Under the pieces are notes generated by a model. That model was not told the DNA's origin and searched no databases. It saw only the letters and a list, made by a program, of their open reading frames with translations. Position numbers and translations under genes: made by a program. From positions 416,001 to 480,000 of the forward strand of contig OZ223272.1 in the NCBI GenBank assembly GCA_965140585.1: a DNA stretch of 64,000 nucleotides, in the 5' to 3' direction. Below are positions 39,770 to 63,062 of the stretch, piece after piece. Source of the stretch: Spirochaetia bacterium. Its GTDB lineage: Bacteria > Spirochaetota > Spirochaetia > UBA9216. Position 1 is the stretch's first letter; each line of letters starts with the position of its first letter.

Positions 39770-39965
39770 TTTTTCCTCCTCTGAAATCATTCAAAAACAG
39801 TTTTATATGATTAAATCGATATTTATTACTGTCAAATAGTATCATAGTAACAATATTTGACATAGTTTTTTATCTAATCACCTCTTTCAATAAATAGTAC
39901 ATTTATATCCCTTCTTCGCCCGTCGGCCGGAGGTCCGGGCGTCTTCTTCTTGTCGGGCTCATTGC

Positions 39966-40055
39966 ACATAACGTCTGCGGTTATATGACGTTTGGCGCAG
40001 CCAAATGTGCCGCAGGCCGAGGCCGAATGGCCGATGCAAATAACCGCTGTTATAT
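39966..40055 (-). other. attC site 1
   Basis: acataac...gcggttat/ataaccgc...gttatat, 90 bp. Confidence 0.88.
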
Positions 40056-40195
40056 AAAGTACTTGGGCTCACTAGTTTCTTCCCCAAAAGACAAGGACGT
40101 ATTTTGGGATCCAATATTAATCTACTTCTTTTCTCTTCAACTCTTACTCTTCAATCTCTTTATTTCAATAATGTTCCTAACTTTATCATAGAATA

Positions 40196-40711
40196 TTAAA
40201 TATTTGTTTTTTTGTTAATATTGTAGATCATTAAAAATTCCTCTTCATTCTCACCTATTATTTGGAACCCTATGTTTTGATACATCTTTAAAGCGTAGTT
40301 ATCTTTTTGTACAGCTAAACTTGCTTTCTTAAAACCTTTATCTCTTAATAATTTCAACATTGAAATCATCAAAGAAGTACCAATTCCATATCCTCTAAAA
40401 TCTTTTAGAATCGATATTGCGAACTCTGGAGTTTTATCATCTATATTCCCAAAGCCTTTGATTTGTTCGGATAATATCCTAACCCAAACACAGCCTATTA
40501 TTTCTTTTTCATATTCTGCTACTAAGCAATAATCTGATTCTTTTCCAAACTCCGCAATATAAACCTGAAGTTCAGGCTTTTTAATTATATCTTTTGGCAG
40601 TCGATCCTTATTATTCTTTTGAAATATTGCCTCGTAGAGAAAATTGTCTAATACATAAATTTCCGATGTTTTAATGTTTCTAATCTTGTAGTTGATTTGA
40701 TTCTTTTTCAT
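40196..40711 (-). CDS. GNAT acetyltransferase cassette
   Basis: PEFAISILKDFRGYGIGT, ALKMYQNIGF. Confidence 0.9.
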   Translation of the reverse strand: MKKNQINYKIRNIKTSEIYVLDNFLYEAIFQKNNKDRLPKDIIKKPELQVYIAEFGKESDYCLVAEYEKEIIGCVWVRILSEQIKGFGNIDDKTPEFAISILKDFRGYGIGTSLMISMLKLLRDKGFKKASLAVQKDNYALKMYQNIGFQIIGENEEEFLMIYNINKKTNI

Positions 40712-40823
40712 AATTTCTCAATAATTTCTATCATAAAATTTTTCAATCCTTCTCTTACCCTTTTTCTCTTTTTCTTCACGAGCCAGGACGGCGAGTGCTG
40801 AATCCTCTTCGCCCAAGTATTTC

Positions 40824-40906
40824 ATATAACGTCCCGGGGTTAAGCGAAGTTGCGAAGCAATTTGGGCGCAGGCCGAAGGGCCGGAGCCGCTTAACCCCTG
40901 TTATCT
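40824..40906 (-). other. attC site 2
   Basis: atataac...ggggttaagcg/cgcttaacccc...gttatct, 83 bp. Confidence 0.88.
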
Positions 40907-40958
40907 GAAGTATTGTGGCTTAAGCCGTAATTACAGGACGTAATTACGGCTTTCTTCT

Positions 40959-41183
40959 CTACGATAACTCTCGAGCTTCTCTAATAACATCAAGAATTTC
41001 TTTGGTTGTAACTTTACTTTTAATTCCTGGAACATCAAATGGCGATTTGCTTTCATTTTTAGTAAGCGGTACAATCTTAAATCTGCTTCCATCCTTCTTT
41101 GCTATTATGACATCTTCTTCTGCTGCCATATTCAATATTGAAGCAAAATTCTGCCTAGCTTCTGAATAATTAAAAACTCTCAT
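40959..41183 (-). CDS. Phd/YefM family antitoxin
   Basis: NYSEARQNFASILNMAAEEDVII. Confidence 0.85.
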   Translation of the reverse strand: MRVFNYSEARQNFASILNMAAEEDVIIAKKDGSRFKIVPLTKNESKSPFDVPGIKSKVTTKEILDVIREARELS

Positions 41184-41576
41184 TCAGACCTCCAATAAGT
41201 GGACTCCTAAATCATTAGCCACTTCTTTCATTCTATTATCCAAACTCAACAAACTGCATTTGTATCGTTTTGCTATTTCCAAATAATACGCATCGTAAGC
41301 ATATATTCCATAATCTGCTGCTATTACTAATGAGTTTTGAATATTAACATCAATCAAACGCACTGGTATTTTCTGAAATATTGAATAACAATCAATTATT
41401 TGACTCTTATCTAATCTATTTCTTTTATACATTACAGATAGAGCGTTTCCCACTTCGAAAGGTAAAACAACCGGTGATATCAGATCATCTTCCTGAGTTA
41501 ATCCAATTATTTTGCTTTTTTCCGGCTCATCGAGAATTACTGCTAAATATATGTTTGCATCTACCAATATACTCAT
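41184..41576 (-). CDS. PIN-domain (VapC-like) toxin
   Basis: LVDANI, EVGNAL, YDAYY, LSLD; likely start at the ATG at 41576. Confidence 0.88.
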   Translation of the reverse strand: MSILVDANIYLAVILDEPEKSKIIGLTQEDDLISPVVLPFEVGNALSVMYKRNRLDKSQIIDCYSIFQKIPVRLIDVNIQNSLVIAADYGIYAYDAYYLEIAKRYKCSLLSLDNRMKEVANDLGVHLLEV

Positions 41577-41667
41577 GTGTACATTGTACAACACTTTTTA
41601 AATTTTATCAATCTTAATTCTTTCTAACGAGCCAAGGAAGGCGAGTTTCTTCAAACCACAATATTTC

Positions 41668-41749
41668 GGATAACGTTCTGAGAATAGGCGAAGTTGGCCA
41701 CAGGCCAATTTGGGTGAAGCGAAGCGGAACCGCCTATTCTCTGTTACAG
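41668..41749 (-). other. attC site 3
   Basis: ggataac...gagaataggcg/cgcctattctc...gttacag, 82 bp. Confidence 0.85.
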
Positions 41750-41778
41750 GAAGTTGATTGAGCTACCTTAGTTCAATC

Positions 41779-43135
41779 GATAACGTAAAAAATCTTTCGC
41801 ACATTTAAAAAATAATGGAAAAGGTCCTCAAGAAGGTTTAATATTTTTTCACCACAAAAAATGAACCAAAGAGAGGACCTTTATGGCAACAAATGAGCCA
41901 GGTAAAATTATACAAATAGATGAGCATTTAGTCCAATCACAATTGAAAGAAGTTGTGAGAGACACTGTTGAAGAAACTCTGAATTCTTTGCTCGATGCAG
42001 AAGCTGACAGGCTTTGCGGAGCAGAAAAATACGAGCGAACTGATGCACGTAAAGATACCCGTGCTGGCTATTACAAACGAAACCTTGATACATCTGCCGG
42101 TCGCGTTGAACTCAAAATGCCTAAGCTAAGAAATCTGCCTTTTGAAACAGCAATTGTCGAACGGTATAAGCGCCGAGAGGCTTCGGTTGAAGAGTCTCTG
42201 ATTGAGATGTATCTGGCCGGAGTTTCTGTTCGTCGAGTTGAAGATATTACCGAAGCACTCTGGGGAACCAAGGTTTCATCAGGTACTGTAAGTAATTTAA
42301 ATAAACAGATTTATGAGTAAATAGAAGCTTGGCGGAACAGACCTATCAAGGAGTATTACCTTTATGTTTATCTCGATGGCATAGTATTGAAGCGCTCCTG
42401 GGCTGGAGAAGTTAGAAATGTATCAGTTTTGGTGGCTATAGGGGTCTCAGAGAGCGGTTATCGTGAAATAATTGGTGTTGCCGAGGGAGCAAAAGAGGAT
42501 AAAGCAGGCTGGAGTGACTTCCTGAAGTTCTTGAAATCCCGAAGGCTTAAAGATGTTAAATTGATTATCTCTGATAAGTGTATGGGCCTTGTAGAATCGA
42601 TCTGTGAATACTTCCCCGAATCCAGATGGCAACGCTGTGTAGTGCATTATTACCGCAATGTTTTTTCTGTAGTACCTCGTGGAAAAATGCGAGAAGTTGC
42701 TGCAATGCTTAAAGCAATTCATGCTCAAGAAGATAGAGATGAGGCATTGAAAAAGGCTTCATATGTAGCTAAGAAACTTGAAGATATGAAACTTCACAAA
42801 GCATCGAAAAAGGTATCTGAATGTATCCATGAAACCCTTGAATACATGTTCTTCCCAGAACAGCACTGGCAAAGAATTAAGACGAATAATCCACTGGAAC
42901 GGATCATGCGGGAAATCCGAAGGCGTACCCGAGTAGTTGGTAATTTCCCTGATGGAAATTCTGCTCTTATGCTGGTCTCTGCTCGGCTCCGACATATTGC
43001 CGGAACAAAATGGGGCACAAAAAAATACTTGAACACTGCTCTTTTGAAGGAGTATGATTACATAGAAAAGGAGGTACTTGCATAGCATCTTCTTGAGGAC
43101 CAAATCTGAAAGTGCGAAAGATTTTAAGCGCTACC
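41779..43135 (+). mobile_element. IS256 family insertion sequence
   Basis: 8-bp target duplication gttcaatc (41771-41778 and 43136-43143); imperfect terminal IRs sharing aaaatctttcgcac; Mutator-type transposase. Confidence 0.92.
41883..43085 (+). pseudogene. IS256 transposase with an in-frame premature stop (TAA at 42318-42320)
   Basis: The two ORF-track pieces are in the same frame (400 codons in total); EMYLAGVSVRRV, YLDG, QRCVVH, TNNPLERIMREIRRRT. Confidence 0.9.
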
Positions 43136-43541
43136 GTTCAATCATCATACCACAACCAAATTTTTCTGTTGGTCTCTTGAAGAAACCAAATTTCTCATAA
43201 AATTCTTCTTTTCCTTTTGCTGCCATTAAAGTGATATAAGAATTTTCTGGAGCATTTTCTTCGAGATAAAGCATTATGCTATTCATTATTTTTGCACCAA
43301 TTTTCTTTCCTCGAAAGTCAGGCTTTACAATTATGTCAGAAATAAAATATATAAAGCCTTTATCACCTACAATTCGTCCCATTCCAATTAATTCAGAATC
43401 AGCATAAGCTGTCACACAATATTCTGTATTACTTAATGATATCTGTATTGAGTGATCCGGCGGTAAAGGCCATCCAACAGATTTTCTAAGTTCTTTAAAT
43501 GATGTCAAAGTTATTATTTCTTTTCTGATCTCAATTTTCAT
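43131..43541 (-). CDS. GNAT acetyltransferase cassette (last codon and stop supplied by the IS end)
   Basis: IGMGRIVGD, DIIVKPDFRGKKIG, FYEKFGF. Confidence 0.88.
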   Translation of the reverse strand: MKIEIRKEIITLTSFKELRKSVGWPLPPDHSIQISLSNTEYCVTAYADSELIGMGRIVGDKGFIYFISDIIVKPDFRGKKIGAKIMNSIMLYLEENAPENSYITLMAAKGKEEFYEKFGFFKRPTEKFGCGMMIER

Positions 43542-43561
43542 TAAAGTCCTCAATCAATTTC

Positions 43562-43706
43562 CTATAACGTCCCGGGTTAAGCGAAGCTGAAGTGCTACTA
43601 CAGGAGAGTTTTGCGAATGCGCAAAACCGACTGAACTTGCTCTGCTTCTTCGTAAGCTTCAGTTTGGGTGAGGCCGTATGGCCGAACCGCTTAACCCTTG
43701 TTATCT
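43562..43706 (-). other. attC site 4 (expanded arm)
   Basis: ctataac...gggttaagcg/cgcttaaccc...gttatct, 145 bp. Confidence 0.82.
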
Positions 43707-43763
43707 GCTGTGAACCAGCGTTCCAGACCGTATAACGGAGTTAGGTCTGAAAATTCTTCATTC

Positions 43764-44162
43764 TTATATACTCCAATCTTCGATTTTTAACCCTTTCACT
43801 CTTTCGAATTCTTTAACATTGTTTGTTACAAATATTAATTCTTTATTTAAAGCTTGTGCAGCTAATAACATATCTATTGGACCTATAATCCGACCTTGTT
43901 TTCTTAAATCTGTCTTTAACCTTCCATAATCTATAGCATCTGAATCATCGAAATTTAAAATATTAAAAATCGATAAGAATTTTAGCAATGCAATACGATT
44001 ATTCTCAATCTTTTGACTATTTTCAACTCCAAACTCTAATTCAGCAACTGTTAGGGATGATATGTAGATTCCATCTGAAATCTTTTCTTTCAATTTCTTT
44101 AAAACCGATTCTGGTCTTTTTTTAATTGCGAAAATACAAATATTTGTATCTAATAAATACAT
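43764..44162 (-). CDS. vapC: VapC PIN toxin
   Basis: MYLLDTNICI, AELEFG, IGPIDMLLAA, VTNNVKEF. Confidence 0.93.
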   Translation of the reverse strand: MYLLDTNICIFAIKKRPESVLKKLKEKISDGIYISSLTVAELEFGVENSQKIENNRIALLKFLSIFNILNFDDSDAIDYGRLKTDLRKQGRIIGPIDMLLAAQALNKELIFVTNNVKEFERVKGLKIEDWSI

Positions 44163-44392
44163 TAGAAACTTTCCCTTTCTTGATTCTTTCCCTGTTCTCT
44201 TCCTGTATCCATAAAATCATCCGAAAACTCATTAATCCCTTCAACGAATATTTCCCATAACTTCTCATGTGGAAATAATAAAACAGCATCACCGTGCTTT
44301 TGAATATAAACTTCATCTCCTCTGAACTGGTACTCTTTTGGTAACCTAACTGCTTGAGATCTGCCATTCATAAATATTTTTGCTGTTTGCAT
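44162..44392 (-). CDS. vapB: VapB (AbrB-fold) antitoxin
   Basis: AKIFMNGRSQAVRLPKEYQF. Confidence 0.93.
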   Translation of the reverse strand: MQTAKIFMNGRSQAVRLPKEYQFRGDEVYIQKHGDAVLLFPHEKLWEIFVEGINEFSDDFMDTGREQGKNQERESF

Positions 44393-44410
44393 ATTATCAC
44401 CTCTATATTA

Positions 44411-44439
44411 AATATATACCTTGATATATACCTTGTCAA
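44411..44439 (-). promoter_or_regulatory. Sigma70 promoter of vapBC with direct-repeat operator
   Basis: TTGACA-17-TATATT; CAAGGTATATAT repeated twice. Confidence 0.75.
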
Positions 44440-44522
44440 ACATTACTTTATCCAAAATCTATTATTTTCTTAATCGCCCGTCGGCCGGAGGTCCGGGCGT
44501 CTTCTCTTCGCTGGTTTATTGC

Positions 44523-44599
44523 AGATAACGTTCCAGGGTTATACGACGTTCGGCGCAGCCCGTAGGCCGAATGGCCGGAGCGTGTAACCCTTGTTATGC
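44523..44599 (-). other. attC site 5
   Basis: agataac...gttatgc, 77 bp. Confidence 0.85.
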
Positions 44600-44651
44600 G
44601 CTTTGAGCCTGACATCCAGACCGTTCAACGGAGTTAGGTCTGGATTCTTCT

Positions 44652-45173
44652 TTAATATCGCTCTTCTCTATTTCTTCTATCTATATCCTTCTCAATCTCT
44701 TTAATCATATCATAGTATTCTGAATCAATTGAGAATTTTACACTAACTTCTTTTCCATCCTTCTTATATAATATAATAAAATAAGTATTAGAACCTATCA
44801 TATTAATATTCTTCTCTTCTAAATATTCCACATTTCTTTTTTCAATAATTTCAATATTTTTTTTAAAAATATTGATTATAAGAAATTTTTCATTACCCCA
44901 ATATACAATCTTTATTTTTCGATATGTAAATAAATAAATGCATAAATAAACAACAACCACCAAAATGAAAAATGGTAAAAAACTATTTTTTATAAATCCA
45001 AATGAATACATTAAAAAATATCCAATAATTATTATTGGAAGCAAATATTTAATAACAAAATGCGAATCATTTGAGACTTTCCTATAACCATCATTAATTA
45101 AATTAACGTTATCATCTTTGCTGATTTTATATTCCATTTTTAAAAAATCAATTATTCTTTTTATTATATTCAT
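44652..45173 (-). CDS. Hypothetical membrane protein cassette
   Basis: Two TM segments; fills the cassette. Confidence 0.7.
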   Translation of the reverse strand: MNIIKRIIDFLKMEYKISKDDNVNLINDGYRKVSNDSHFVIKYLLPIIIIGYFLMYSFGFIKNSFLPFFILVVVVYLCIYLFTYRKIKIVYWGNEKFLIINIFKKNIEIIEKRNVEYLEEKNINMIGSNTYFIILYKKDGKEVSVKFSIDSEYYDMIKEIEKDIDRRNREERY

Positions 45174-45338
45174 TATTAATTATCCCTTTCTAAAAAACTT
45201 TGTATTCTTATGTTCTTAAAGTATTAAAAATCAATTTAAACAATCATTTTTGTTAAACACTATAGTATTTTTCATTTTTCCTTCTTTCTCGCCCGTCGGC
45301 CGAAGGTCCGGGCATCTTACTCTTGTTAGGCTCATTGC

Positions 45339-45434
45339 GTATAACGTTCCGGGGTTATGTGACGTACGGCGCCAAGCCGTATGTGGCGCAGCCCGAGGAG
45401 CGTATAGCGACGAAGCACATAGCCCCTGTTATCT
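45339..45434 (-). other. attC site 6
   Basis: gtataac...gttatct, 96 bp. Confidence 0.87.
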
Positions 45435-45504
45435 GCTGTATTTTCGCCTCTTCGACCAGGCCGTACGGCGGGGCCAGGCTGGGTTCTTAAAATCCTCTTT
45501 ACTT

Positions 45505-46368
45505 CTAATTATATCTTCTCGTTCCTATTCTTCTAAACAGAAAACCTCCAATACAAGTATCTTCATATTTCGTACCTGGATATACATCATCAATTCTAAT
45601 TATTACTTCCTGATCGCAGAATACTTTGGTATCGATAAATTGAGGATTAGCGGTATCTTCTATCTCATAGGCCCGCTCAATATCCTTATCTTTACTAATG
45701 ATAGTAAACTTTTTTAATCTTGAATTTTCTGAATACAGTCGTGGTGAATCAAATGATATGTATCCATTAATTATATAAAATCCATCAATTATGCCCTTAT
45801 CACCAGAGAAATGTGTTAAATTCATATAAATTTCTTCACCTAAACCATTTCCAGAAGCAGCTTCAGCCCATGGATGTTTTAGATCAATATAAATTAAATT
45901 TTGCGCTTCATAATCAACCTTCTCTTCGGTTAAATGCGAACTCGAGGTAATTCTTGTAGATAATGATGCGAAACGGTATTTCTTTAAAAATTCTTGTGTA
46001 GCCCCAATAAAGATGGCACTATTTGTCTTATTTAATTGTTCTGACATATAAACTAATAGTAATTCATCATTCTCAAGAAGCAATAGCTTTCTTTCCCCAT
46101 TCACTGTTAAGTAATTAAACCCATTAACCTTTTCTATCTCATAATCTTCGTATAAAACTTCGGAAGGTATTTCGTATGAAACAGCATTTTCATACTTTGA
46201 ATTAATTCCCACACCTGCTTCATTATCCAATCTAAATTGCTGATCACTTATTTCTATTCTTAAATCATCACCAAAAAATGGATCTTCATAATAAAAGGGA
46301 TTATCAATTTGTGCGTAAATCATTTCTAAAGTGAAAAACAATATTGATATACTGATTAACTTTTTCAC
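45505..46368 (-). CDS. Exported protein with NADase-type glycan-binding/discoidin-like domain
   Basis: Signal peptide from GTG at 46368; WAE...GLGEEI, INGY, NSRLK, VYPGTKYEDTCI. Confidence 0.65.
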   Translation of the reverse strand: MKKLISISILFFTLEMIYAQIDNPFYYEDPFFGDDLRIEISDQQFRLDNEAGVGINSKYENAVSYEIPSEVLYEDYEIEKVNGFNYLTVNGERKLLLLENDELLLVYMSEQLNKTNSAIFIGATQEFLKKYRFASLSTRITSSSHLTEEKVDYEAQNLIYIDLKHPWAEAASGNGLGEEIYMNLTHFSGDKGIIDGFYIINGYISFDSPRLYSENSRLKKFTIISKDKDIERAYEIEDTANPQFIDTKVFCDQEVIIRIDDVYPGTKYEDTCIGGFLFRRIGTRRYN

Positions 46369-46472
46369 ATCTTCTCCAATATTTTCATTTTTAATCATCA
46401 AAATATGATTACACTTTCTTAATAGCCCGTCGGCCGGAGGTCCGGGTGTCTTCCTCTTTGCGGGGGCATTTC

Positions 46473-46563
46473 AGCTAACGTTCCAGGGTTACACGACGTT
46501 GGCGCAGCCGAATGTGGCGCAGCCCAGAGGCCGAATGGCCGAAGCGTGTAACCCTTGTTATCT
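46473..46563 (-). other. attC site 7
   Basis: agctaac...gttatct, 91 bp. Confidence 0.85.
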
Positions 46564-46609
46564 GCTTTGAACCCGTCATCCAGACCGTTCAACGGAGTTA
46601 GGTCTGGAT

Positions 46610-46800
46610 TCTTCCTCTCTTCCTCTCTTCCTCTCTTCCTCTCTTCCTCTCTTCCTCTCTTCCTCTCTTCCTCTCTTCCTCTCTTCCTCTCTTCCTCTCT
46701 TCCTCTCTTCCTCTCTTCCTCTCTTCCTCTCTTCCTCTCTTCCTCTCTTCCTCTCTTCCTCTCTTCCTCTCTTCCTCTCTTCCTCTCTTCCTCTCTTCCT
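46610..46800. repeat. Perfect octamer tandem repeat (CTCTTCCT)x23 plus a partial unit
   Basis: Read directly; pure pyrimidine tract. Confidence 0.97.
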
Positions 46801-46830
46801 GTCGATAAAATCAATTCTTTCCCAACTATT

Positions 46831-47298
46831 TCAAGTTAAAGACTTATCAATCGCCTCTCTAATTTTTAAAATCTCTTGGAGCTTTCTTTCCCTTAATATT
46901 TCAATAAATTTATCAGCTTCACCTTCATCAAATTTTATTTCAACTTCTTGTATATTATTTTTATTATTTTCAAAAGTAAGTTTAACTATTCTTTCATCAA
47001 TTTTTACTATATCTTTTATTTTTAAAATCTTAACACTTTTGCCATATACTTCTAAAATTATTAGATCTTCACTGATTATGACATTATACCTTCTTATTAA
47101 GATAGGGGCCAAAGATTTACCCAACACATAAACGCTTATTATGAATGATATAAATATTGCTTTTATCTCAAACCGACTCGGAAAAACTTTATAAACCACA
47201 AAAAAACTAGCAATAATCATCCCAAATTCAACAAGCCCAACTTTTCTTATTTCTTTTGGCTGATAAAATGTATATCTTCCATTTTTATATTTATACAT
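46831..47298 (-). CDS. Hypothetical membrane protein cassette
   Basis: Two TM segments; fills the cassette. Confidence 0.65.
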   Translation of the reverse strand: MYKYKNGRYTFYQPKEIRKVGLVEFGMIIASFFVVYKVFPSRFEIKAIFISFIISVYVLGKSLAPILIRRYNVIISEDLIILEVYGKSVKILKIKDIVKIDERIVKLTFENNKNNIQEVEIKFDEGEADKFIEILRERKLQEILKIREAIDKSLT

Positions 47299-47425
47299 AT
47301 TGCTTATTCCTTAGCTATATTTATAAAATTGTAACTATCATTTATTTATAACTCAAAAACCACATACAAAATCTTCGCCCGTCGGCCGGAGGTCCGGGCG
47401 TCCTCTTTCCTGACGGGTTCATTGC

Positions 47426-47505
47426 TTATAACGTTCTGAGAATGTGCGAAGTCGCCGCAGGCGATTTGGGTGAAGCGAAGCGAAACCGCATATTCGCTGT
47501 TATGT
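47426..47505 (-). other. attC site 8
   Basis: ttataac...gttatgt, 80 bp; the stop codon of the upstream gene lies in the R'' box. Confidence 0.87.
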
Positions 47506-48147
47506 GTCGTTTTTTTGGTTTCGGTGAAATTTAAACACATATGCATACGCTTTTTTTGTAAAATTTTCTCCTACCATTTTTTTCTGGACTTCCTCTAAAT
47601 CAATTGGAGTATTGTCGTCTTTTATAAAATACTCATCTAAATCTGTATCAGTAATACTGAACTTGTCTCCATTTCGTTTAATTATAGCAATTAACTCATA
47701 CTCTTCATCCGCATAGGCGAGACTTGCATCACCATGGCTATTATTACAGACTAATATGCCTTGATTTTTTAAGTATTTTTTACAGGATTGTGAAATAAAA
47801 CCGGCATAAAATGAAAATAAAATATCGAATGAATACATATCAATTGGTAATTCACTTGAAAAATCAGCTTGAAATGCTTGAATCGTAGGATCTTCCTCAT
47901 AGCTTTTATTGAGTTTGATAAAATTTAAGACTTTTTCATCTTCAAAGAACTTTGAAATTCTTTTATCCGAATCAATATATGTCATTTCACGAATATAAAA
48001 TGAAGGAGAAATATGTACAAAACTGCCAGGATAAATACCTTTTGTAGGATTGTATAAGTTCTTTATATTTTCAAATAATTTTTTTCGTTCATCTTTTTTG
48101 TCAATAAAGTATTGCTTATATAACTTCGGTATTTCTAATTCTTTCAT
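47500..48147 (-). CDS. Hypothetical protein, SAM-dependent methyltransferase-like
   Basis: IYPGSFVHISPSF, YIDSD, FDILFS, YLK.QGILV pattern. Confidence 0.6.
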   Translation of the reverse strand: MKELEIPKLYKQYFIDKKDERKKLFENIKNLYNPTKGIYPGSFVHISPSFYIREMTYIDSDKRISKFFEDEKVLNFIKLNKSYEEDPTIQAFQADFSSELPIDMYSFDILFSFYAGFISQSCKKYLKNQGILVCNNSHGDASLAYADEEYELIAIIKRNGDKFSITDTDLDEYFIKDDNTPIDLEEVQKKMVGENFTKKAYAYVFKFHRNQKNDT

Positions 48148-54523: not shown

Positions 54524-54817
54524 TTAACTAATCTTTCTTTTATCTACTAATTGTCCTGTAATATATTTATGAAGAACACTTTTTACAAAGGTTTGATATT
54601 TCAACCCTTCACTATCTGCGAATTCTTTAATCTTTTCCAATTCAAACTCATCAATTCTAATATTCATTTTTGTTTCTTTTTTTCTAAATTCACGAGCAGC
54701 ACTTTTAAACATTTTCTGTCTTTCAACCGTAGGCTTAGAAATATTTTGAATATCTATACTTTTTAAAGATTCTGCTAAATCTTTTTCTTCATCATCTAAA
54801 TATTTACCATCATTCAT
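54524..54817 (-). CDS. CopG/BrnA-like RHH antitoxin
   Basis: KMNIRI...KIKEFADSEGLKYQTFVKSVLHKY. Confidence 0.82.
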   Translation of the reverse strand: MNDGKYLDDEEKDLAESLKSIDIQNISKPTVERQKMFKSAAREFRKKETKMNIRIDEFELEKIKEFADSEGLKYQTFVKSVLHKYITGQLVDKRKIS

Positions 54818-55088
54818 CTTTTACCTCCTCTATTAAATATAAGAAATCTCTATTTGGAAAAATTGTCTTTAAAAAAATTTCTTCTTCATCTAATACATAC
54901 GGGACACAATATGTATAATCATTTAAATTTACTACCATAATCATTTGATTTGGGTATTTTTCCCGGTTCGGATGCTGAAAATCTAAAAGAACGCCTTCAT
55001 TCTCTATTACTTCAATTATCTGATTAAATGTTATTCCTCGAGTCTTAAATAACAACTCATTCTTTTCAGCATTAAAATTGAACACCAT
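54810..55088 (-). CDS. BrnT-like toxin
   Basis: FNAEKNELL..TRGITF, HPNREKYPNQ, FLKTIFPNR. Confidence 0.82.
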   Translation of the reverse strand: MVFNFNAEKNELLFKTRGITFNQIIEVIENEGVLLDFQHPNREKYPNQMIMVVNLNDYTYCVPYVLDEEEIFLKTIFPNRDFLYLIEEVKDE

Positions 55089-55094
55089 ATTATC

Positions 55095-55124
55095 AGTATA
55101 CCCCCATTGTGCGCACATAGTCAA
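55095..55124 (-). promoter_or_regulatory. Promoter of the BrnT-like TA pair (probably leaderless mRNA)
   Basis: TTGACT-18-TATACT, 6 nt before the ATG; TGTGCGCACA palindrome in the spacer. Confidence 0.65.
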
Positions 55125-55204
55125 TCTATTTTAATTTAATCTAATCTTGACTCTACGCCCGTCGGCCGGAGGTCCGGGCGTCTTTTTCTTGTTGAGCCCA
55201 TTGC

Positions 55205-55382
55205 ATATAACGTCCGCGGTTATGTGATGTTTTGTGGTCGGCCCTACAGGCCGATTGGCAACTCTTTTGCATTCAGCGCCTTTACCCTCTATCTTGCTAC
55301 TACTTCGCAAAAGTGATGCCAAAACAAAATATGCCGCAGGCCAAGGAGCGTTTAGCGACGCCGCACATAGCCGCTGTTATAC
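55205..55382 (-). other. attC site 18 (long, linked to type B)
   Basis: atataac...gttatac, 178 bp. Confidence 0.82.
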
Positions 55383-55765
55383 GCCGTCACAAAATAAAGA
55401 AAGTTGTTTATCATCATCACAATCTAAACAATTCTTTTACTTTTCAAATATCTATAATATTCTATTCGACCATACTGACTTTCACAATCTTTTTTATTTA
55501 CTCCGCAAAATAACGAGCTTTGCGAGTGGGCCAGTTTTGCATAAACGTTTCTGCATGCCCCAGCCCCGTACAGATTTTGATAATTCCAAAGCCAAAACTC
55601 TTTCATAAAACGTCAGAAAAAAGTCGTTGTTTGAATTTTTTCTTCATCAAAATAAAAATCAAAATCTGAAATCAGATCTTAGTCGAACAGAATATTGCCA
55701 ACTTATTATTTCATTATTAAGTGCAGCAACTTTCTTCCACCCAATATCCTTGCCAAAGTGATGGA
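55383..55765 (-). repeat. Non-coding cassette type B, copy 2
   Basis: Near-identical to the other type B copies. Confidence 0.85.
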
Positions 55766-55857
55766 GTATAACGTCCCGGGGTTATACGACGTTCGGCAAA
55801 GCCGAATGTGGCGCAGCCCGAAGCCCGAATGGGCGGAGCGTATAGCCCCTGTTATGC
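55766..55857 (-). other. attC site 19
   Basis: gtataac...gttatgc, 92 bp. Confidence 0.88.
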
Positions 55858-56248
55858 GACGTCGCCTTTATTAGAGAAAGATTTCGATCAATCAAACGAT
55901 CTAAATAATCTCCTCTTACCATTTCTACCCAATATTCTATTCGCCCTTTGCGACTTTCACAATCATTTTTATCTCACCTGCAAGTCAACGAGCAAAGCGA
56001 GTGTGGCAGACTTGCCAAACGGAAAAAACCTGTCATGCCCACGAAGCAGATTTTGATAATTATAAGCCAATACTTTTTCTTTAACGTCAGAACAAACATA
56101 GTCCAACGCAACGACCTTCTTCTAACAACAACCAAATCTAAATCCAAAATCTTCCTCATTCCAGGGCGAATTGAATATTGCAAACTATTTGGTAATCACT
56201 TATGGTTCGGAACTTTCTCCACCCCAAGATCATGCTCCGGCGATGTCC
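55858..56248 (-). repeat. Non-coding cassette type A, copy 5
   Basis: Near-identical body. Confidence 0.87.
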
Positions 56249-56343
56249 GCATAACGTCCCGGGGTTATGTGACGTATGGCGAAAGCCGTATGTGGCGGAG
56301 CCCGAGGAGCGTATAGCGACGAAGCACATAGCCCCTGTTATCT
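56249..56343 (-). other. attC site 20
   Basis: gcataac...gttatct, 95 bp. Confidence 0.88.
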
Positions 56344-56454
56344 GCAGTGTTTCCGCCTCTTCGGCCAGACCGTTCGGCGGAGCCAGGACTGGCCTCTTTC
56401 CTAATCTATTCTCCTCTTCTCAGCTTTTCAAATTCATAAACACTTTTGAATTAA

Positions 56455-56931
56455 TTAAAAATATATTGATAACCCTAACGGTAAGACGAAGAAACTATCT
56501 TCTCCACCATCATAAATTTCATTTGTGATATAATTAGCTTTTAAATACATGAATAATTTCCATTTTTCAACAATCATAAACTGAAGCTGCATTCCACCAA
56601 TCAAGTACAGCTCACTAAACGCATTTTCTCCCGGATGAAAATCAGTTCCAATTCCAGCTTGTAATAATGCATTCAATCTTGGAGTAAACTCTAACGAATA
56701 TCGATAAGTTGTAGAAATTATTGATTGTGGACCCCAATGCCCTGATAACATTAAAATATTATTATTAATTTTATATCCAACACAAGTTTCAGAATATGCA
56801 AAAACACCATCAAAAGATTCTTCTTCAAGTGGTATACTTGTAACTCCTCCTAATTCAAAAACAACCTTATTTTCTCCGAAAGCGAACGAATTACTCAACA
56901 ATAACATTAAAAAAACAAATACCTTTTTCAT
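56455..56931 (-). CDS. Exported hypothetical protein, possible small outer-membrane beta-barrel
   Basis: Signal peptide; C-terminal GLSIYF. Confidence 0.6.
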   Translation of the reverse strand: MKKVFVFLMLLLSNSFAFGENKVVFELGGVTSIPLEEESFDGVFAYSETCVGYKINNNILMLSGHWGPQSIISTTYRYSLEFTPRLNALLQAGIGTDFHPGENAFSELYLIGGMQLQFMIVEKWKLFMYLKANYITNEIYDGGEDSFFVLPLGLSIYF

Positions 56932-57065
56932 AATTTTTCTTCCTCTATAATTTTTATAAATTTGTATTTAATATATCACCTTTAATTAAAGATGCTTGAA
57001 ATTTCTATATTTTCTTCGCCCGTCGGCCGGAGGTCCGGGCGTCTTCCTCTTGGCGGAAACATTGC

Positions 57066-57159
57066 AGATAACGTCCCGGGGTTATGTGACGTTCGGCAAA
57101 GCCGAATGTGGCGGAGCCCGAGGAGCGTATAGCGACGAAGCACATAGCCCCTGTTATCT
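57066..57159 (-). other. attC site 21
   Basis: agataac...gttatct, 94 bp. Confidence 0.88.
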
Positions 57160-57214
57160 GCTTTGTTTCCGCCTCTTCGACCAGACCGTACGGTGGAGCC
57201 AGGGCTAGTCTCTT

Positions 57215-58090
57215 TTAACCCTTAACTACAATCTTTGTTCCAACCCCACCTTCTTTATATATTTCTCTTAATTCTTCTCTAAAATAATCTATTCCAAGAT
57301 CTCCAGAACTATGCATTGGATATAACATTTTTAAAGGTAGCTCTTGAAATCTTTTTTTAGTAAATTCTAATAATTCCTCATTGGCCTGATATAATTGTAA
57401 ACCACCGATTATAGCAATTATATTATCATCACCATTCTTCTTAATATGTTCTATAGTATTTACTATTCCCGAATGACAACAACCACATACTATGATTTTT
57501 TTATTTTCTTCAAGTTCAATCACCAAAGAAATATCATCATCTATCTCATCCTGTTTTTCTTTTCCATTTTCTCTTGTAACAACTTGTTTTAATATTGGAT
57601 TGAGATCTTCTACCTTATTCGTCCTTGATATTTCTCCAGTAGTCCAGATATATTCATTCAAATTATAACGTTCTTTACTCTCGTATATTCTTCCCCTATT
57701 TCTTAGCTCATTAATTTTGGATAATTCTTTAATTCCAACGTTATTTTCTGAGCCATCATCTAATTTTAAGATTTTTTCGTTAAATATGCCTGGATGGCAG
57801 ATTATTTTTGTTTTTTCATTTGAATTATTGTAAGCATATAATAGCCCTCCTGTATGATCAAAATGACCATGACTAAGAACTATATAATCTATATCACTAA
57901 TCTCTAAACCCAGCTTTTTGAGATTAACTTCTAATCTTTCATTTTCAGGTCCTGTATCAAACAATATTTTAATAATGCTTCCATCATCGAATAAGTTTTC
58001 TATTAATGCAGAAAAACCACCGGGAGCATATTCATCTCCAATTAAGGATTTATTATCAACTATAATTGTAATATTCACTTTTTTGATCAT
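57215..58090 (-). CDS. MBL-fold metallo-hydrolase (MJ0448/DHPS-like subgroup)
   Basis: ILFDTG, LSHGHFDHTGG, GCCHSG, GG.., PMHSSG. Confidence 0.85.
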   Translation of the reverse strand: MIKKVNITIIVDNKSLIGDEYAPGGFSALIENLFDDGSIIKILFDTGPENERLEVNLKKLGLEISDIDYIVLSHGHFDHTGGLLYAYNNSNEKTKIICHPGIFNEKILKLDDGSENNVGIKELSKINELRNRGRIYESKERYNLNEYIWTTGEISRTNKVEDLNPILKQVVTRENGKEKQDEIDDDISLVIELEENKKIIVCGCCHSGIVNTIEHIKKNGDDNIIAIIGGLQLYQANEELLEFTKKRFQELPLKMLYPMHSSGDLGIDYFREELREIYKEGGVGTKIVVKG

Positions 58091-58199
58091 TTATATACTC
58101 ACCTCTTTTCCATATTCTATGTACCAATAATTTAAATTACACTTTCTAATAGCCCGTCGGCCGGAGGTCCGGGCGTCTTTCTCTTGGCGGAAACATTGC

Positions 58200-58287
58200 A
58201 GATAACGTCCCGGGCATATGCGAAGTTGGCCGCAGGCCAATTTGGGCGAAGGGGCTTGACCCCGTAGCCGCATGTGCCCTGTTATGC
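58200..58287 (-). other. attC site 22
   Basis: agataac...gggcatatgcg/cgcatgtgccc...gttatgc, 88 bp. Confidence 0.85.
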
Positions 58288-58678
58288 GACGTCGCCTTTA
58301 TTAGAGAAAGATTCCGATCAATCAAACGATCTAAATAATCTCCTCTTACCATTTCTACCCAATATTCTATTCGCCCTTTGCGACTTTCACAATCATTTTT
58401 ATTTCACCTGCAAGTCAACGAGCAAAGCGAGTGTGGCAGACTTGCCAAACGGAAAAAACCTGTCATGCCCACGAAGCAGATTTTGATAATTATAAGCCAA
58501 TACTTTTTCTTTAACGTCAGAACAAACATCGTCCAACGCAACGACCTTCTTCTAACAACAACCAAATCAAAATCCAAAATCTTCCTCATTCCAGGGCGAA
58601 TTGAATATTGCAAACTATTTGGTAATCACTTATGGTTCGGAACTTTCTCCACCCCAAGATCATGCTCCGGCGATGTCC
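58288..58678 (-). repeat. Non-coding cassette type A, copy 6
   Basis: Body near-identical to copy 4 but with a different attC. Confidence 0.87.
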
Positions 58679-58772
58679 GCATAACGTCCCGGGGTTATGT
58701 GACGTACGGCGAAGCCGTATGTGGCGCAGCCCGAGGAGCGCATAGCGACGATGCACATAGCCCCTGTTATCT
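58679..58772 (-). other. attC site 23
   Basis: gcataac...gttatct, 94 bp. Confidence 0.88.
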
Positions 58773-58848
58773 GAAGTGCCCCCGCTCTTCAACCCAACCG
58801 CACGGCGGAGTCAAGGTTGGGTTTCTTTGAACATCTTCAACATTTCTT

Positions 58849-59355
58849 TTAATCAATTATTTTCCCCATCAATAACGCTCCATAGTATCTTCCATTTATT
58901 AAGAACTCACGCTTTTGATTTCCTTCTACCTCAAAACCAATTTTTTCATATAATTTAACAGCCCTGAAATTATCTTCTTTTACTTTTAAATTAATCTTAG
59001 TTTTATCATTCTGTTTAGCCCATAATAATAGAGAAGAAATCATTTCAGTTGCAATCCCTTCTCCCCAATATTGCTTTAAAACATAAACACTAAACTCACC
59101 AACATGTTTATTTCTTTTTCGCCCACCTGATATAAAATATAAACTTCCTATAATTTCGTCCTTATATTCTGCAACTATACAATAATGATTTGAGCTATCT
59201 ATACAATCCTGAACAAGTTCCTTTTCTCTTTCAAATGTTGATATTATTTCTCCAGCACTAAAAGATAATTCATCTGATTCAGTTGCAATTTTATCCATTA
59301 AGATTTTTCTCTTCTCGATATCGTATGATTCAATCTTTCTAATATTATAATCCAT
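58849..59355 (-). CDS. GNAT acetyltransferase cassette
   Basis: HVGEFSVYVLKQYWGEGIAT, NFRAVKLYEKIGF; start uncertain. Confidence 0.88.
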   Translation of the reverse strand: MDYNIRKIESYDIEKRKILMDKIATESDELSFSAGEIISTFEREKELVQDCIDSSNHYCIVAEYKDEIIGSLYFISGGRKRNKHVGEFSVYVLKQYWGEGIATEMISSLLLWAKQNDKTKINLKVKEDNFRAVKLYEKIGFEVEGNQKREFLINGRYYGALLMGKIID

Positions 59356-59468
59356 TTCTTCTTCTTTTTTATTCACTCTCAGATTTTACCATTTTTTTTG
59401 AAATAATCTAAAACTCTTTTTCGCCCGTCGGCCGGAGGTCCGGGCGATTTCTCCCAAGGGGGCATTTC

Positions 59469-59617
59469 AGATAACGGCCCCAGCATAACCGAAGTTGAAG
59501 TGCAACCAAAGGAGTGTTTTGCCCAAAGAGCAAAACCGACTGTCCCTGCTCTCCTTCTCCGCAAGCTTCAATTTGGGTGGAGGCCGAATGGCCGGAACCG
59601 GTTATGGTGTGTTATGT
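59469..59617 (-). other. attC site 24 (expanded arm)
   Basis: agataac...cataaccg/cggttatg...gttatgt, 149 bp. Confidence 0.8.
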
Positions 59618-59740
59618 GCTTTGAGCCCGACATCCAGACCGTTCAACGGAGTTAGGTCTGGATTCTTCATTTATCCAGCTTAAAATTACATTTAATGAAA
59701 TTAAAAACATCAAATAATTTTCTTATAAACTGTATCTTTT

Positions 59741-60622
59741 TTATCCATAATATTTATTTGTAATGATATCATAAAGCTCCTTTTTATATGATTCAGCTTT
59801 ATTTATAAAAGCTTTTTCAACTAATTCTTTTTTCTTTTCATTATTTAAACCTGGAAGATTCGTCATATTAAGCAATCTCTTCAATTCTTCATCAGATAAA
59901 ACTCGTACAACCCAATCTAAATCTTCATTAGCCAAAGCTTTCATTATTTTCTTCTTGATTTTTCGGTTGTACTCAACGGTTTTTATTTTTTCTATAAAAT
60001 TAATTATTCCATATTTAACCAAATCGTACATTAAGGCACCGGTCACAGAAAAGATTAAGGCTTGAATGACATAGTCACCTTCTCCTCCTTTCTCTTCTGG
60101 CATTTCAAGTGTGAGATCTAGTAATCTCTTTAAATATCTATATTTCTCATTATCACAATTATAAAAAGAATTAACAATTTCAATTTCGATTTTATGTACT
60201 TGGGAAAGATTATCTATTTCTTCTAAACTTATCAATGCAACTTCTTTAATAGCGAGATCTATTTCCCTTTTTAATTCTTTCCAAAAATAATCGTAGAAAT
60301 AATACCCCATACTCATTTGTATTTCTATGATAAATTCTTCCTCGCAAACTTCACATTTAACATTCATCTTTAACTTTTCTTGAAAAGTCTCTATTAAGAT
60401 TTCACTTATATCCACTATTTCTATTTCTTCATTTTTATATTCTTCATGCAATGATTTGATAAAGGAAACAGTTTTTTTATTAATATTCTCATAATAATTA
60501 TTCAACAAATCTATACTGTCAAAAACAACAAACTTTCCAGAATTAAAAATATATTTAACAGATTCATCTAATGGCTTTAGTTTTTTACTTCTACATTTTG
60601 GACATTGATTATCATAAAACAT
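59741..60622 (-). CDS. Hypothetical protein with split CxxC...CxxC zinc ribbon
   Basis: CPKC and CEVC; fills the cassette. Confidence 0.7.
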   Translation of the reverse strand: MFYDNQCPKCRSKKLKPLDESVKYIFNSGKFVVFDSIDLLNNYYENINKKTVSFIKSLHEEYKNEEIEIVDISEILIETFQEKLKMNVKCEVCEEEFIIEIQMSMGYYFYDYFWKELKREIDLAIKEVALISLEEIDNLSQVHKIEIEIVNSFYNCDNEKYRYLKRLLDLTLEMPEEKGGEGDYVIQALIFSVTGALMYDLVKYGIINFIEKIKTVEYNRKIKKKIMKALANEDLDWVVRVLSDEELKRLLNMTNLPGLNNEKKKELVEKAFINKAESYKKELYDIITNKYYG

Positions 60623-60709
60623 TTCATTAACCCCTTCCTTTATTTATAATCTTTTCTCTTCGCCCGTCGGCCGGAGGTCCGGGCGTCTTCTTCTTGTCGG
60701 GCTCATTGC

Positions 60710-60801
60710 ACATAACGTTCCGGGGTTATACGACGTTCGGCGCAGCCGAATGTGGCGCAGCCCGGAGCCCGAATGGGCGGAGCGTATAGCCCCTGTTATG
60801 T
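60710..60801 (-). other. attC site 25
   Basis: acataac...gttatgt, 92 bp. Confidence 0.88.
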
Positions 60802-60879
60802 TCAGTAAAAAGGCAGGCCTCCAACTTTAAAGGAGAACTTGTACACGGATGTACAAGTTCTCTCTTTTCATCTTCAAAT

Positions 60880-61566
60880 TCATACATTAAATGCATTTCC
60901 TTTTCCTAAATTACATTCTCTACACTTTGTTTCTAAATTCTCAGGAATGGTTTCTCCTCCTTTTGACCAAGGAAGAATATGATCAACATGTAATTCAACA
61001 CCCAATTCTTTCATTGGACTTCTACCACATTTCTTACATGTAAATCCATCTCGCATCAATATCTTAAAACGTAACCTATCTGAAATTTCTCGTTTTGTTT
61101 TATGAACTATTTGCTGCTTTGATTCTTGCTTAATGATTTCATCTTTCTTTTCTTCGACATCTTCTTCGCTATCATCAGCATTTATAAAAACAACAAATTG
61201 TTCTAAAGCTTTCATCCATGAACCGAATCGACTCTCATATGGTTTTGTAGAAAATGCAGAAAGTGGCTTTTTTATTTCTGAATATCTCGGTTGTCTCCCA
61301 AGTTTTATCCAAACATTTTCTATGTTCTTAAATAATTCTTTTTCCGTAATATTCACTTTTCTATTTATTCTTAATCCTGCTTTCTCTAATGCATCAGTCC
61401 AAGACCCAAATCTATTTTGCAACGTATGATGATTATATTTTCCATACTGTTCATATTCCGCAATTGTAACACTATCTTTTTCTAATGTTTTTGATACTTT
61501 CTTTAAATCTTCTAATAATTTTTCATCTGAGATATTCCTATTGTATTCTTCTAATTCAAACATCAT
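60880..61566 (-). CDS. HNH endonuclease with two homing-endonuclease-associated repeats
   Basis: RFGSW..AL twice; RDGFTCKKCG, HVDHILPWSKGG, NLETKCRECN. Confidence 0.9.
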   Translation of the reverse strand: MMFELEEYNRNISDEKLLEDLKKVSKTLEKDSVTIAEYEQYGKYNHHTLQNRFGSWTDALEKAGLRINRKVNITEKELFKNIENVWIKLGRQPRYSEIKKPLSAFSTKPYESRFGSWMKALEQFVVFINADDSEEDVEEKKDEIIKQESKQQIVHKTKREISDRLRFKILMRDGFTCKKCGRSPMKELGVELHVDHILPWSKGGETIPENLETKCRECNLGKGNAFNV

Positions 61567-61633
61567 TTTCTCATTATACCTTTTTTGGGCCAGGACGGCC
61601 CAAAAACACCCTCCGAAGCCGCCTTTTTATTGA

Positions 61634-61810
61634 ACATAACGTCCGCGGTTATGTGATGTTTTGTGGTCGGCCCTACAGGCCGATTGGCAACTCTTTTGCA
61701 TTCAGCGCCTTTACCCTCTATCTTTCTCCATTTCGCAAAAGTGGTGACAAAACAAAATATGCCGCAGGCCAAGGAGCGTCTAGCGACGCCGCACATAGCC
61801 GCTGTTATAC
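61634..61810 (-). other. attC site 26 (long, linked to type B)
   Basis: acataac...gttatac, 177 bp. Confidence 0.82.
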
Positions 61811-62195
61811 GCCGTCACAAAATAAAGAAAGTTGTACATCATCTTCACAATCTAAACATTTCTTTCACATTTCAAACTTCTTTAATATTCTATTCGACCA
61901 TACTGACTTTCACAATCTTTTTTATTTACTCCGCAAAATAACGAGCTTTGCGAGTGGGCCAGTTTTGCATAAACGTTTCTGTATGCCCCAGCCCCGTACA
62001 GATTTTGATAATTCCAAAGCCAAAACTCTTTCATAGAACGTCAGAAAAAAGTCATTGTTTGAAATTTTTCTTCATCAAAACAAAAATCAAAATCTGAAAT
62101 CAGATCTTAGTCGAACAGAATATTGCCAACTTATTATTTCATTATTTAAGCGCAGCAACTTTCTTCCACCCCATATCCTTGCCCAAAGTGATGGA
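61811..62195 (-). repeat. Non-coding cassette type B, copy 3
   Basis: Near-identical to the other type B copies. Confidence 0.85.
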
Positions 62196-62278
62196 GTATA
62201 ACGTCCCGGGGTTAAGCGAAGTTGCGCAGCAATTTAGGCGTAGGCCGAATGGCCGGAGCCGCTTAACCCCTGTTATGC
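62196..62278 (-). other. attC site 27
   Basis: gtataac...gttatgc, 83 bp. Confidence 0.88.
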
Positions 62279-62667
62279 GACGTCGCTTTTTATTAGAGAA
62301 AGATTCCGATCAATCAAGTGATCTAAAAGAATCTCCACTTCTTATTTCTACCCAATATTCTATTCGCCCTTTGCGACTTTCTCAATCATTTTTATTTTAT
62401 CTGCAAGTCAACGAGCATAGCGAGTGAAGCAGACTTGCTGAACGGAACAACCTGCTGCGCCCGCGAAGCAGATTTTGATAATTATAAGCCAATACTTTTT
62501 CTTTAACGTCAGAACAAACATCGTCCAACGCAACGACCTTCTTCTAACAACCAAATCAAAATCCAAAATCTTCCTCATTCCAGGGCGAATTGAATATTGT
62601 AAACTATTTGGTAATCACTTGTGGTTCGGAACTTTCTCCACCCCAAGATCATGCTCCTGCGATGTCC
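62279..62667 (-). repeat. Non-coding cassette type A, copy 7 (most divergent)
   Basis: Same layout with more substitutions. Confidence 0.85.
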
Positions 62668-62992
62668 GCATAACGTCCCGGGGTTATATGACGTTTTTAT
62701 TTTTCTTAATTTTACCACCAATTACCCGTATTTACCAATTATAAACTATTGCTTCATGTCTGTGCATTTAACGACGATTTGAGTAGCAAAATCGGCCGAG
62801 TCTTCGAGGCATGGCGCAGTTCTGGAACGTAGCGCGATCAGCGCGAAGTGTCTTTAGCCAGAACTGTGACAAAGATTTTGACTACTCCAAATCTCTTGTT
62901 AAATGCTTACACCCAACTTACCCAAATCATAAAATAAAAATGTGGCGCAGCCCGAGGAGCTTATAGCGACGAGCAAATAACCCCTGTTATAG
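62668..62992 (-). other. attC site 28, giant (325 bp)
   Basis: gcataac-gtcccggggttatatgacg...tgtggcgcagcccgaggagc...ataacccct-gttatag with a ~245-bp structured insert. Confidence 0.7.
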
Positions 62993-63062
62993 GCAGTAAG
63001 CGCCTCTTTGATTACATGTAGTGAGGCACGGATGCCGAACGGTAATCTTGCTATCTTTTCTG

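Follow-up and report, generated by a model that had tools for sequence, protein, structure and literature searches.

The stretch of DNA analyzed here (the window, 64,000 nucleotides (nt) of contig OZ223272.1, positions 416,001 to 480,000) belongs to a marine member of the Spirochaetia whose genome assembly (GCA_965140585.1) comprises 10 contigs and 4.85 Mb and is 98.5% complete; the contig holding the window is designated C9, and positions given without a contig name are those of the window. It contains most of a sedentary cassette array, which occupies 39961..64000 and runs on to C9:486621, about 6.6 kb past the window end, and in which attC-like sites of one class (type 1) with R and L boxes follow one another in a single orientation and separate single cassettes. 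In the current view the R boxes are the limits of an attC site, and a special domain of the integrase recognizes it via extrahelical bases. Two short conserved hairpins (A on the leader side and B on the trailer side of the cassettes) and a palindrome running beyond the R boxes (the outer stem) lie outside this limit; they appear to be new within integron-type cassette systems and look like an undescribed accessory part of the site. In the main-text literature searched on integrons and attC, no description was found of conserved hairpins outside attC.

A profile built from 13 type-1 sites and run with nhmmer against the whole genome returned 46 rows. The array (C9:455961-486621) accounts for 43 of these, every one on the + strand, which together represent about 37 attC-like sites. 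The + strand of the window is taken as the attC bottom strand because, among the 149 cassettes that have an open reading frame (ORF) of 60 aa or more, 131 have it on the other strand, and because the junction beside the recombinase gene reads G|TTATGC on the minus strand. A representative site (49863..49950, +) has an R box ATAACG/TGTTAT, a 4-nt bulge on the 5' arm, an 11-bp L stem and a branched centre. In the predicted consensus fold of the 13 sites the R stem has six pairs including an invariant + strand G.T (13/13 sites), the 4-nt bulge lies between the R and L stems on the 5' arm opposite a fully paired 3' arm, and beyond it comes the 11-bp L stem; compensatory change was seen at 10 of 22 pairs. 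The same genome holds a second, classical integron at C6:916643-966455, with a canonical, divergently transcribed IntI (377.9 bits against TIGR02249); its attC sites, about 28, belong to another class, 135 nt in length (type 2).

Hairpin A was found by pattern search in twelve copies in the window, all on the + strand with 0-1 mismatch, where 100 shuffles gave an expectation of 0. Its plan is displayed by the copy at 39918..39940 (GCCCG, a TC bulge, GGCC, a GGA loop, GGTC and CGGGC), and the pattern is matched at 44476..44498, 47377..47399, 49813..49835 (also folded), 55157..55179, 57018..57040, 58152..58174, 59423..59445 and 60662..60684; the copy at 45291..45313 has a GAA loop, that at 46425..46447 ends in T, which gives a G.T closing pair on the + strand, and that at 53357..53379 has G-C in place of the wobble pair. 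An earlier sequence-only reading of the window had placed twelve copies at these same positions, one of them (about 58153) a single base too far on.

The seven copies of hairpin B listed in that reading were likewise all recovered (+ strand, 0-3 mismatches, 0 expected from shuffles), at 43722..43751 (3 mismatches), 44615..44644, 46579..46608, 48273..48302, 52301..52330, 54477..54506 and 59633..59662. Hairpin B consists of an 8-bp outer stem of its own, an internal loop G-N-N-C facing A or AA (GTTC/A in the copy at 44615), a 3-bp inner stem and a GGA loop. The four further variants proposed near 45455, 56363, 57179 and 58790 fit this two-helix fold: 45451..45491 with a GGC/GCC inner stem and a GGG loop, 56359..56399, in which GGC/GCC replaces AAC/GTT as had been stated, 57175..57215, identified by a structure-anchored parse, and 58788..58828, whose outer stem is altered on both sides (ACCCAACC/GGTTGGGT); all four are on the + strand.

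Across the genome, 13 copies of A (at most 3 mismatches) and 8 of B (at most 4) were found, every one on the + strand and inside the array in C9:455918-485914. The reading that first reported them had named common genome-wide REP (repetitive extragenic palindromic) elements or terminators as the finding that would undo it, and neither description applies: the copies are restricted to the array, and a scan for intrinsic terminators gave 6 sites against 11.6 expected, A and B not among them, the T/C tract being antisense to the genes. A search of 39000-64000 with Rfam gave 0 matches at E<=1.

The arrangement of the two hairpins recalls mobile elements. In IS200/IS605 elements hairpins stand in direct orientation on one strand at both ends of the unit, as A and B do, and by eye A and B have a common core, CCGT(N)CGGC(C)GGAG. 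It is nonetheless highly improbable that they are small selfish repeats (REP/MITE-like, or the ends of single-strand transposons) inserting next to attC, for this genome has 0 copies outside arrays, their spacing to attC is fixed rather than scattered, no Y1/HUH transposase (PF01797) was found in the 98.5%-complete genome, and the only GIY-YIG match is a 611-aa frame, so that there is no small Ssn-like nuclease. Like REP/BIME elements and the NTS repeats of Neisseria, the array hairpins are oriented conserved repeats flanking genes, with both sequence and fold kept; unlike them, they are tied to attC and not spread genome-wide. Passages of PMC11893778 describe NTS as oriented hairpin repeats cut by the single-strand nuclease Ssn.

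The manner in which the hairpins vary was examined in this genome and its relatives. Of the 241 distinct copies of hairpin A, 152 show no deviation. Position 7, in the bulge, is free to change (C 186, T 31, G 24), whereas T6 beside it is retained in 234 copies and each loop letter in 231-235, with little change in the stems. At pair 9-17, G.T stands in 222 copies, G-C in 12 and A-T in 4. Such conservation leaves little room for covariation within the hairpin, but the pair directly outside the 23-mer does covary (C-G 22, A-U 13, U.G 3, other 8; n=46). Since variation falls on position 7 while T6, the loop and the stems are kept, this pattern, as read from the sequences, indicates purifying selection rather than recent copying or a passive footprint. 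Near-identical copies occur in genomes whose recombinases are 40-41% identical to the array's own, and exact copies occur in 82 stretches of public genomes, mostly metagenome-assembled genomes (MAGs) of Spirochaetia. One Spirochaetia genome, OY759746.1 (L028, loci L034-L113), has of the order of a hundred exact A copies on one strand, which suggests a very large array.

Hairpin B was aligned by the structure-anchored parse (32 rows) and in a gap-free subgroup (14 distinct rows). The 32 rows give 334 Watson-Crick cells, 10 G.T, 3 A.C and 5 other; in the 14 distinct rows 98.7% of cells are paired and 7 of 11 pairs have changed on both sides, a level reached in 0 of 500 shuffles, and controls with the arms slid out of register are at most 41.6% paired.

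The hairpins are placed by attC rather than by the gene. From the end of the A loop to the R box it is 36-39 nt in 18 of 24 cases with type 1 and 80-87 nt in all 19 with type 2. The start of the B loop lies 33 or 37 nt from the R box in 10 of 14 cases with type 1; with type 2 the distance is 18 or 27-28 nt in 14 of 19. Most outliers are missed sites. From A to the start of the cassette ORF the distance is 4-382 nt (median about 52). As the earlier reading had it, A flanks the start and B the stop of the minus-strand ORFs. Its description of leader, terminal stem, attC and trailer as one block holds as well, the spacing inside the block being fixed.

Beyond the R boxes the two ends of a cassette also pair with each other, the arms being the 16 nt that follow the R box at the trailer end and the 16 nt that follow it at the leader end. 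With Watson-Crick and G.T pairs counted, at least 12 of the 16 positions pair in 21 of 143 comparisons of a cassette's own ends; comparisons across a junction reach this in 7 of 158, and random ones in about 1.6%. The stem is a feature of type-1 cassettes: with Watson-Crick pairs only and at least 10 of 16, it is seen in 18 of 45 distinct pairs of own ends from type 1 and in 2 of the 82 from type 2. In the cassette 52283-53407 the arms 52283..52298 and 53392..53407 (both +) pair at 16 of 16 positions, against 8 of 16 across its own junction. The palindrome of a canonical attC ends at the R''/R' boxes; here own ends pair up to 16/16 beyond them. Outer-stem sequences differ between cassettes; therefore the arms have changed together. 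The stem fits a palindrome read in the excised circle, as expected and as had been proposed for the terminal stem, which does pair the two ends of the same cassette, and the fold of one junction displays it.

Besides A and B, there are cassettes that have hairpins with unrelated stems, again with a GGA loop on the + strand followed by a pyrimidine tract. In the window these are, on the trailer side, 40922..40952 (13-bp stem, AGGAC loop), 50458..50489 (14-bp stem with one + strand G.T, CGGA loop) and 60829..60867 (CGGA loop), and, on the leader side, 51106..51127 (9-bp stem with one + strand G.T, GGGA loop) and 61582..61606 (10-bp stem, AGGAC loop), all on the + strand. They read [A/C]CA-NGGA-TG[T/G] or C-A(N)GGAC-G. 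Arrays of this genome and relatives, 223 kb in all, were oriented by their attC sites and scanned for hairpins: on the bottom strand 244 passed, 107 of them with a GGA loop (60 distinct sequences) and 2 with TCC, and on the top strand 0 had a GGA loop; among strong hairpins outside the array GGA occurs in 23 of 792 and TCC in 17. Hairpins that pass on one strand only are bottom-only in 55 cases (43 of them hairpin A) and top-only in 5. In the 12 nt 3' of the hairpins the mean C+T content is 0.775 against an array background of 0.564, and TCTT or TTCT is present after 87 of the 107, in agreement with the tcttc-rich linker noticed earlier. G.T pairs exceed A.C on the bottom strand in the outer stem (20 vs 3) and in B (10 vs 3), and G.T is found in 13 of 13 attC R boxes; in A, B and the type-1 site the helix is broken on its 5' side by a bulge containing T/C (TC, G-N-N-C and TYCC, respectively). 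A perfect (TCTTCCTC) x 23.9 tandem repeat at 46610..46800 (+), directly 3' of a hairpin B, is an expanded pyrimidine tail with the motif seen after other hairpins.

These observations bear on whether the frame has a present function. That it is inert, a leftover adapter of cassette building or copying, would agree with the presence of one frame round unrelated cargo, with the inheritance of the whole block at fixed spacing and with the existence of related cargo with and without it, although such cargo pairs are few (e.g., a 71%-identical ORF segment) and their flanks strongly diverged. This explanation is very unlikely, since A varies at one unpaired position with stems, bulge T and loop kept, B and the outer stem carry compensatory changes, unrelated stems have a common loop and strand, and no empty frame was found. 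The proposal of the sequence-only reading that genes were captured into a chassis gained no support: a search with a narrow regular expression for the B core revealed no empty chassis in 198 distinct contexts of A, the nearest B core lying at least 610 nt upstream of A and 53 of the 198 having one within 1200 nt. Its companion, a footprint of cassette creation, gained no evidence of a cassette-building mechanism, and the variation points to present-day purifying selection.

The hairpins might also act as RNA, on one strand or the other. With RNA parameters the + strand of hairpin A forms the full hairpin (-14.6 kcal/mol) and the minus strand the outer stem only (-11.6 kcal/mol), its inner helix being open; for hairpin B the two strands are about equal. 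Most cassettes of sedentary arrays are generally regarded as poorly expressed. The complements of A and B may mark the two ends of sense messages, as 5'- and 3'-untranslated hairpins that protect them or mark processing sites, with an AAGAAG-type purine tract before each hairpin and array transcripts cut at the long attC RNA stem; this is possible but doubtful. The location of A at the above distance upstream of the start codon and of B between stop codon and attC, the occurrence of both in one cassette as for two ends of one message, the equal folding of B and the promoter-like boxes of certain cassettes without ORF (see below), which could drive transcripts, all accord with it. In the coding strand, however, pair 9-17 of A is a C.A mismatch with predicted loss of the inner helix, the G.T pairs of B and of the outer stem favour the other strand, spacing is fixed to attC and not to the ORF, generic protective hairpins need no loop, bulge and wobble that are invariant across families, and the poor expression of sedentary cassettes ill fits strong conservation.

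Transcripts of the bottom strand offer another setting. Sites of CsrA/RsmE have GGA in a hairpin loop, with the shape ACA-NGGA-TGT or C-ANGGAN-G, and RNA-binding proteins typically identify their targets by features such as a conserved G.U pair, a U bulge and a small loop of purines. Array hairpins have GGA in a 3-6-nt loop and several read as this consensus, the GGA loop is on the bottom strand in 107 of 107, a U/C-rich tract follows each hairpin, two hairpins pass the terminator scan and csrA is present in the genome; A and B might thus be CsrA-type binding hairpins in antisense RNA, or weak terminators or insulators against antisense transcription towards the recombinase gene. Such a role is unlikely: known CsrA sites sit within the regulated message, typically at the ribosome-binding site, whereas the GGA here lies opposite the cassette ORFs, outside known leaders and at a fixed distance from a recombination site; the promoter scan found no consistent + strand promoter; A and B are unflagged as terminators, the tail of A having only 4 T in 8; and there is no evident reason for selecting cassette-borne sites at a fixed distance from attC. 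Treponema-type integron cassettes can carry antisense promoters, according to passages of PMC6557892 and of the review PMC8876359, which would favour antisense transcripts.

The cassettes themselves were surveyed in this genome and related ones as 156 inter-site intervals, for which hairpin counts are lower bounds as some B variants escape the finder. Trailer and leader hairpins are both present in 29 intervals, only the leader in 20 and only the trailer in 13, and the two tend to co-occur in one cassette; in the window's array at least one hairpin occurs in 18 of 34 intervals. Cargo proteins are unrelated, as had been noticed, and include GNAT (two), PIN, beta-lactamase-fold, ankyrin/SH3, metallo-beta-lactamase-fold, HNH and NADase-translocation domain proteins as well as several without any family. 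Hairpins accompany 2 of the 18 bottom-strand ORFs, and both of these cassettes apparently hold an inserted DDE transposase gene. In a relative (G007) a 385-aa DDE transposase gene (DUF4372 and DDE_Tnp_1) lies in type-2 cassettes at L017:5173-6330 and 11340-12497, on the strand opposite to the cassette genes. Alignments of cassettes with relatives end mostly within about 25 nt of the R box, blurred by the similarity of the attC sites.

Cassettes without an ORF are frequent in the array. One type of about 383 nt (483-nt period) is present in many copies (49958-50340, 53502-53884, 53985-54367, 55863-56245, 58293-58675 and others), also adjoins the attI-like junction at the recombinase gene and has on its sense strand a sequence resembling a promoter, TTGTGA-17-TAGAAT, which the scan picked up in 7 copies. 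Another recurring type is about 375 nt long. In the leaders of type-2 sites conserved TGTTAG and TAAAAT boxes were seen by eye at variable spacing and were not called a promoter. Passages of PMC6557892 describe ORF-less Treponema cassettes with promoters on either strand, and integrons of Treponema are the subject of passages of PMC3607928.

Several sites depart from the usual type-1 length. Long sites of about 187 nt, with about 100 nt extra in the centre, are found at 51625-51810, 55200-55387 and 61629-61815 and at L001 3800-3986 and 5957-6144, and sites of 121-155 nt at 43557-43711 and 59470-59612. Profile searches revealed a hybrid of 333 nt (62665-62997, +) in which a type-2 attC (62768..62903) is nested in a type-1 site and brings part of its leader into the type-1 centre; similar hybrids occur in a relative (L015 near 12813 and other flanks). 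Elsewhere in the genome a lone type-1 attC-like site lies far from any array (C1:859298-859393, minus, E 6.7e-15) and a cluster of three type-2 attC sites at C2:33103-35243.

At the far end of the array, outside the window, lies a gene for a tyrosine recombinase of 357 aa (C9:487083-488153, L001:7080-8153, minus strand). It is on the strand of the cassette genes and transcribed towards the cassettes, its stop codon being about 70 nt from the last R-box-like junction, and GTTAT-like repeats are present at the attI-like junction beside the stop. The protein scores 229 bits against NF040815 (XerA-type, 'tyrosine recombinase/integron integrase') and 192.8 bits, in two stretches and under the cut-off of 265, against TIGR02249 (integron integrase). 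Its alignment with the canonical IntI of the same genome has gaps of 31 and 8 residues, and where IntI4 (2a3v) has 63 residues it has 22; with archaeal XerA structures it aligns end to end in one stretch, its C-terminal part being IntI-like. From its sequence the enzyme is thus judged Xer-like and to lack the integron-integrase insertion (I2 region). An extra N-terminal part has a weak HARP-like match and recurs in homologues. Homologues (E<=1e-60) were found in 30 of 301 sampled Spirochaetia genomes, and a 96%-identical protein in the MAG of a Spirochaetia bacterium.

The array is integron-like without being a canonical integron. What its sites share with the attC sites of sedentary chromosomal integrons (e.g., the highly similar Vibrio repeats) is an imperfectly palindromic sequence with AAC...GTT R boxes and an L stem, a common orientation, a single site to each cassette, high similarity among the sites of a host and folding on the strand opposite the cassette genes. 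The array differs in that its palindrome runs about 16 nt past the R box with cassette-specific covariation, in the 4-nt bulge of the 5' arm, extrahelical bases having been expected on the other arm, and in the two further conserved hairpins at a fixed distance outside the site. In IntI systems, as in this array, a tyrosine recombinase with this kind of C-terminal part adjoins the array and an attI-like junction, but the enzyme found here is without the IntI-specific insertion and is transcribed towards the cassettes. Passages of Escudero et al. 2016 (PMC4792948) describe a co-evolution of the IntI insertion with the extrahelical bases and point out that Xer enzymes act on a folded phage site (CTX phage) with neither feature. 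By analogy the array looks like this pairing of Xer and folded site, but with cassettes. According to a passage of the IntegronFinder report (PMC4889954), of 18,808 tyrosine recombinases that lack the IntI-specific region only 50 adjoin an attC site.

Taken with the evidence above, the hairpins are read, tentatively and with a probability of roughly 0.35, as accessory, strand-specific protein-recognition elements of an extended folded recombination site. Leader hairpin and trailer hairpin (A and B, or ones with other stems) and outer stem form a standard non-coding frame in about half of the array's cassettes; in the attC bottom strand each frame hairpin has GGA as a purine loop and is followed 3' by a pyrimidine tract. 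When this strand folds, and most completely in the excised circle, the hairpins would bracket the attC stem and may assist the folding, orientation or protection of the site. Selection on cassette mobility would maintain them, with basic recombination working without them. We infer that the active form is single-stranded DNA rather than RNA, and likewise that a protein binds it and what this binding does. A role in the recombination site is preferred because the hairpins are exclusive to arrays, are on the same strand as attC, keep a spacing fixed by attC and are accompanied by the outer stem, and because a 23-mer that stays unchanged in hundreds of cassettes, most of them silent, seems hard to explain except by selection on mobility.

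A number of observations weigh against this recombination-site role. With DNA energy parameters the two strands of hairpin A are about equal (-7.7 vs -7.5 kcal/mol), its non-consensus pair states are only weakly biased (G.T 9 vs A.C 5) and one variant folds better on the top strand; the excess of G.T could stem from strand-biased mutation, and the resemblance of the unrelated-stem hairpins to the CsrA/RsmE consensus points to RNA. The spacing may be constant simply because the flank as a whole descends from a common ancestor, and in counts across relatives many rows come from related genomes with common cassettes and are not independent. No gene is conserved beside the recombinase, a 310-aa neighbour adjoining it only in a genome of the same genus. 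Neither hairpin is present in 94 of the 156 intervals; in the genome's own type-2 arrays a hairpin occurs in 2 of 29 intervals, and in its canonical integron in 2 of 27 cassettes. Two relatives have type-2 arrays that carry A and B, one of them with a canonical IntI (392.5 bits). The hairpins are therefore optional and dispensable and tied to no one attC class or recombinase, and their occurrence with both a Xer-like enzyme and a canonical IntI argues against a site tailored to one enzyme. As they are found with two attC classes they are separable modules and not part of one attC lineage.

A bolder extension of the recombination-site role would take the type-1 array as integron-like gene capture by a Xer-like recombinase that never gained, or has lost, the IntI insertion, the bulge, the outer stem and two polarity-giving hairpins replacing the extrahelical bases. 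The outer stem might then complete a duplex-like binding arm and the hairpins give strand and polarity. This is rather improbable. If it were true, the shared frame would be the standard adapter of the system and would provide a direct handle on the making of cassettes and on the origin of integrons from Xer systems.

Hundreds of cassettes of marine spirochaetes thus carry extra conserved, strand-specific structures round the recombination site, and the recombinase beside the array described here lacks the insertion domain. If the hairpins and the outer stem act in recombination, they would represent a new class of accessory elements for single-strand recombination, and the array a system in nature that stands between the Xer and the integron integrases. 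Action on RNA would instead make them a cassette-borne standard for expression. In either case these are short elements that can be tested, and they occur in two recombination systems of one genome family.

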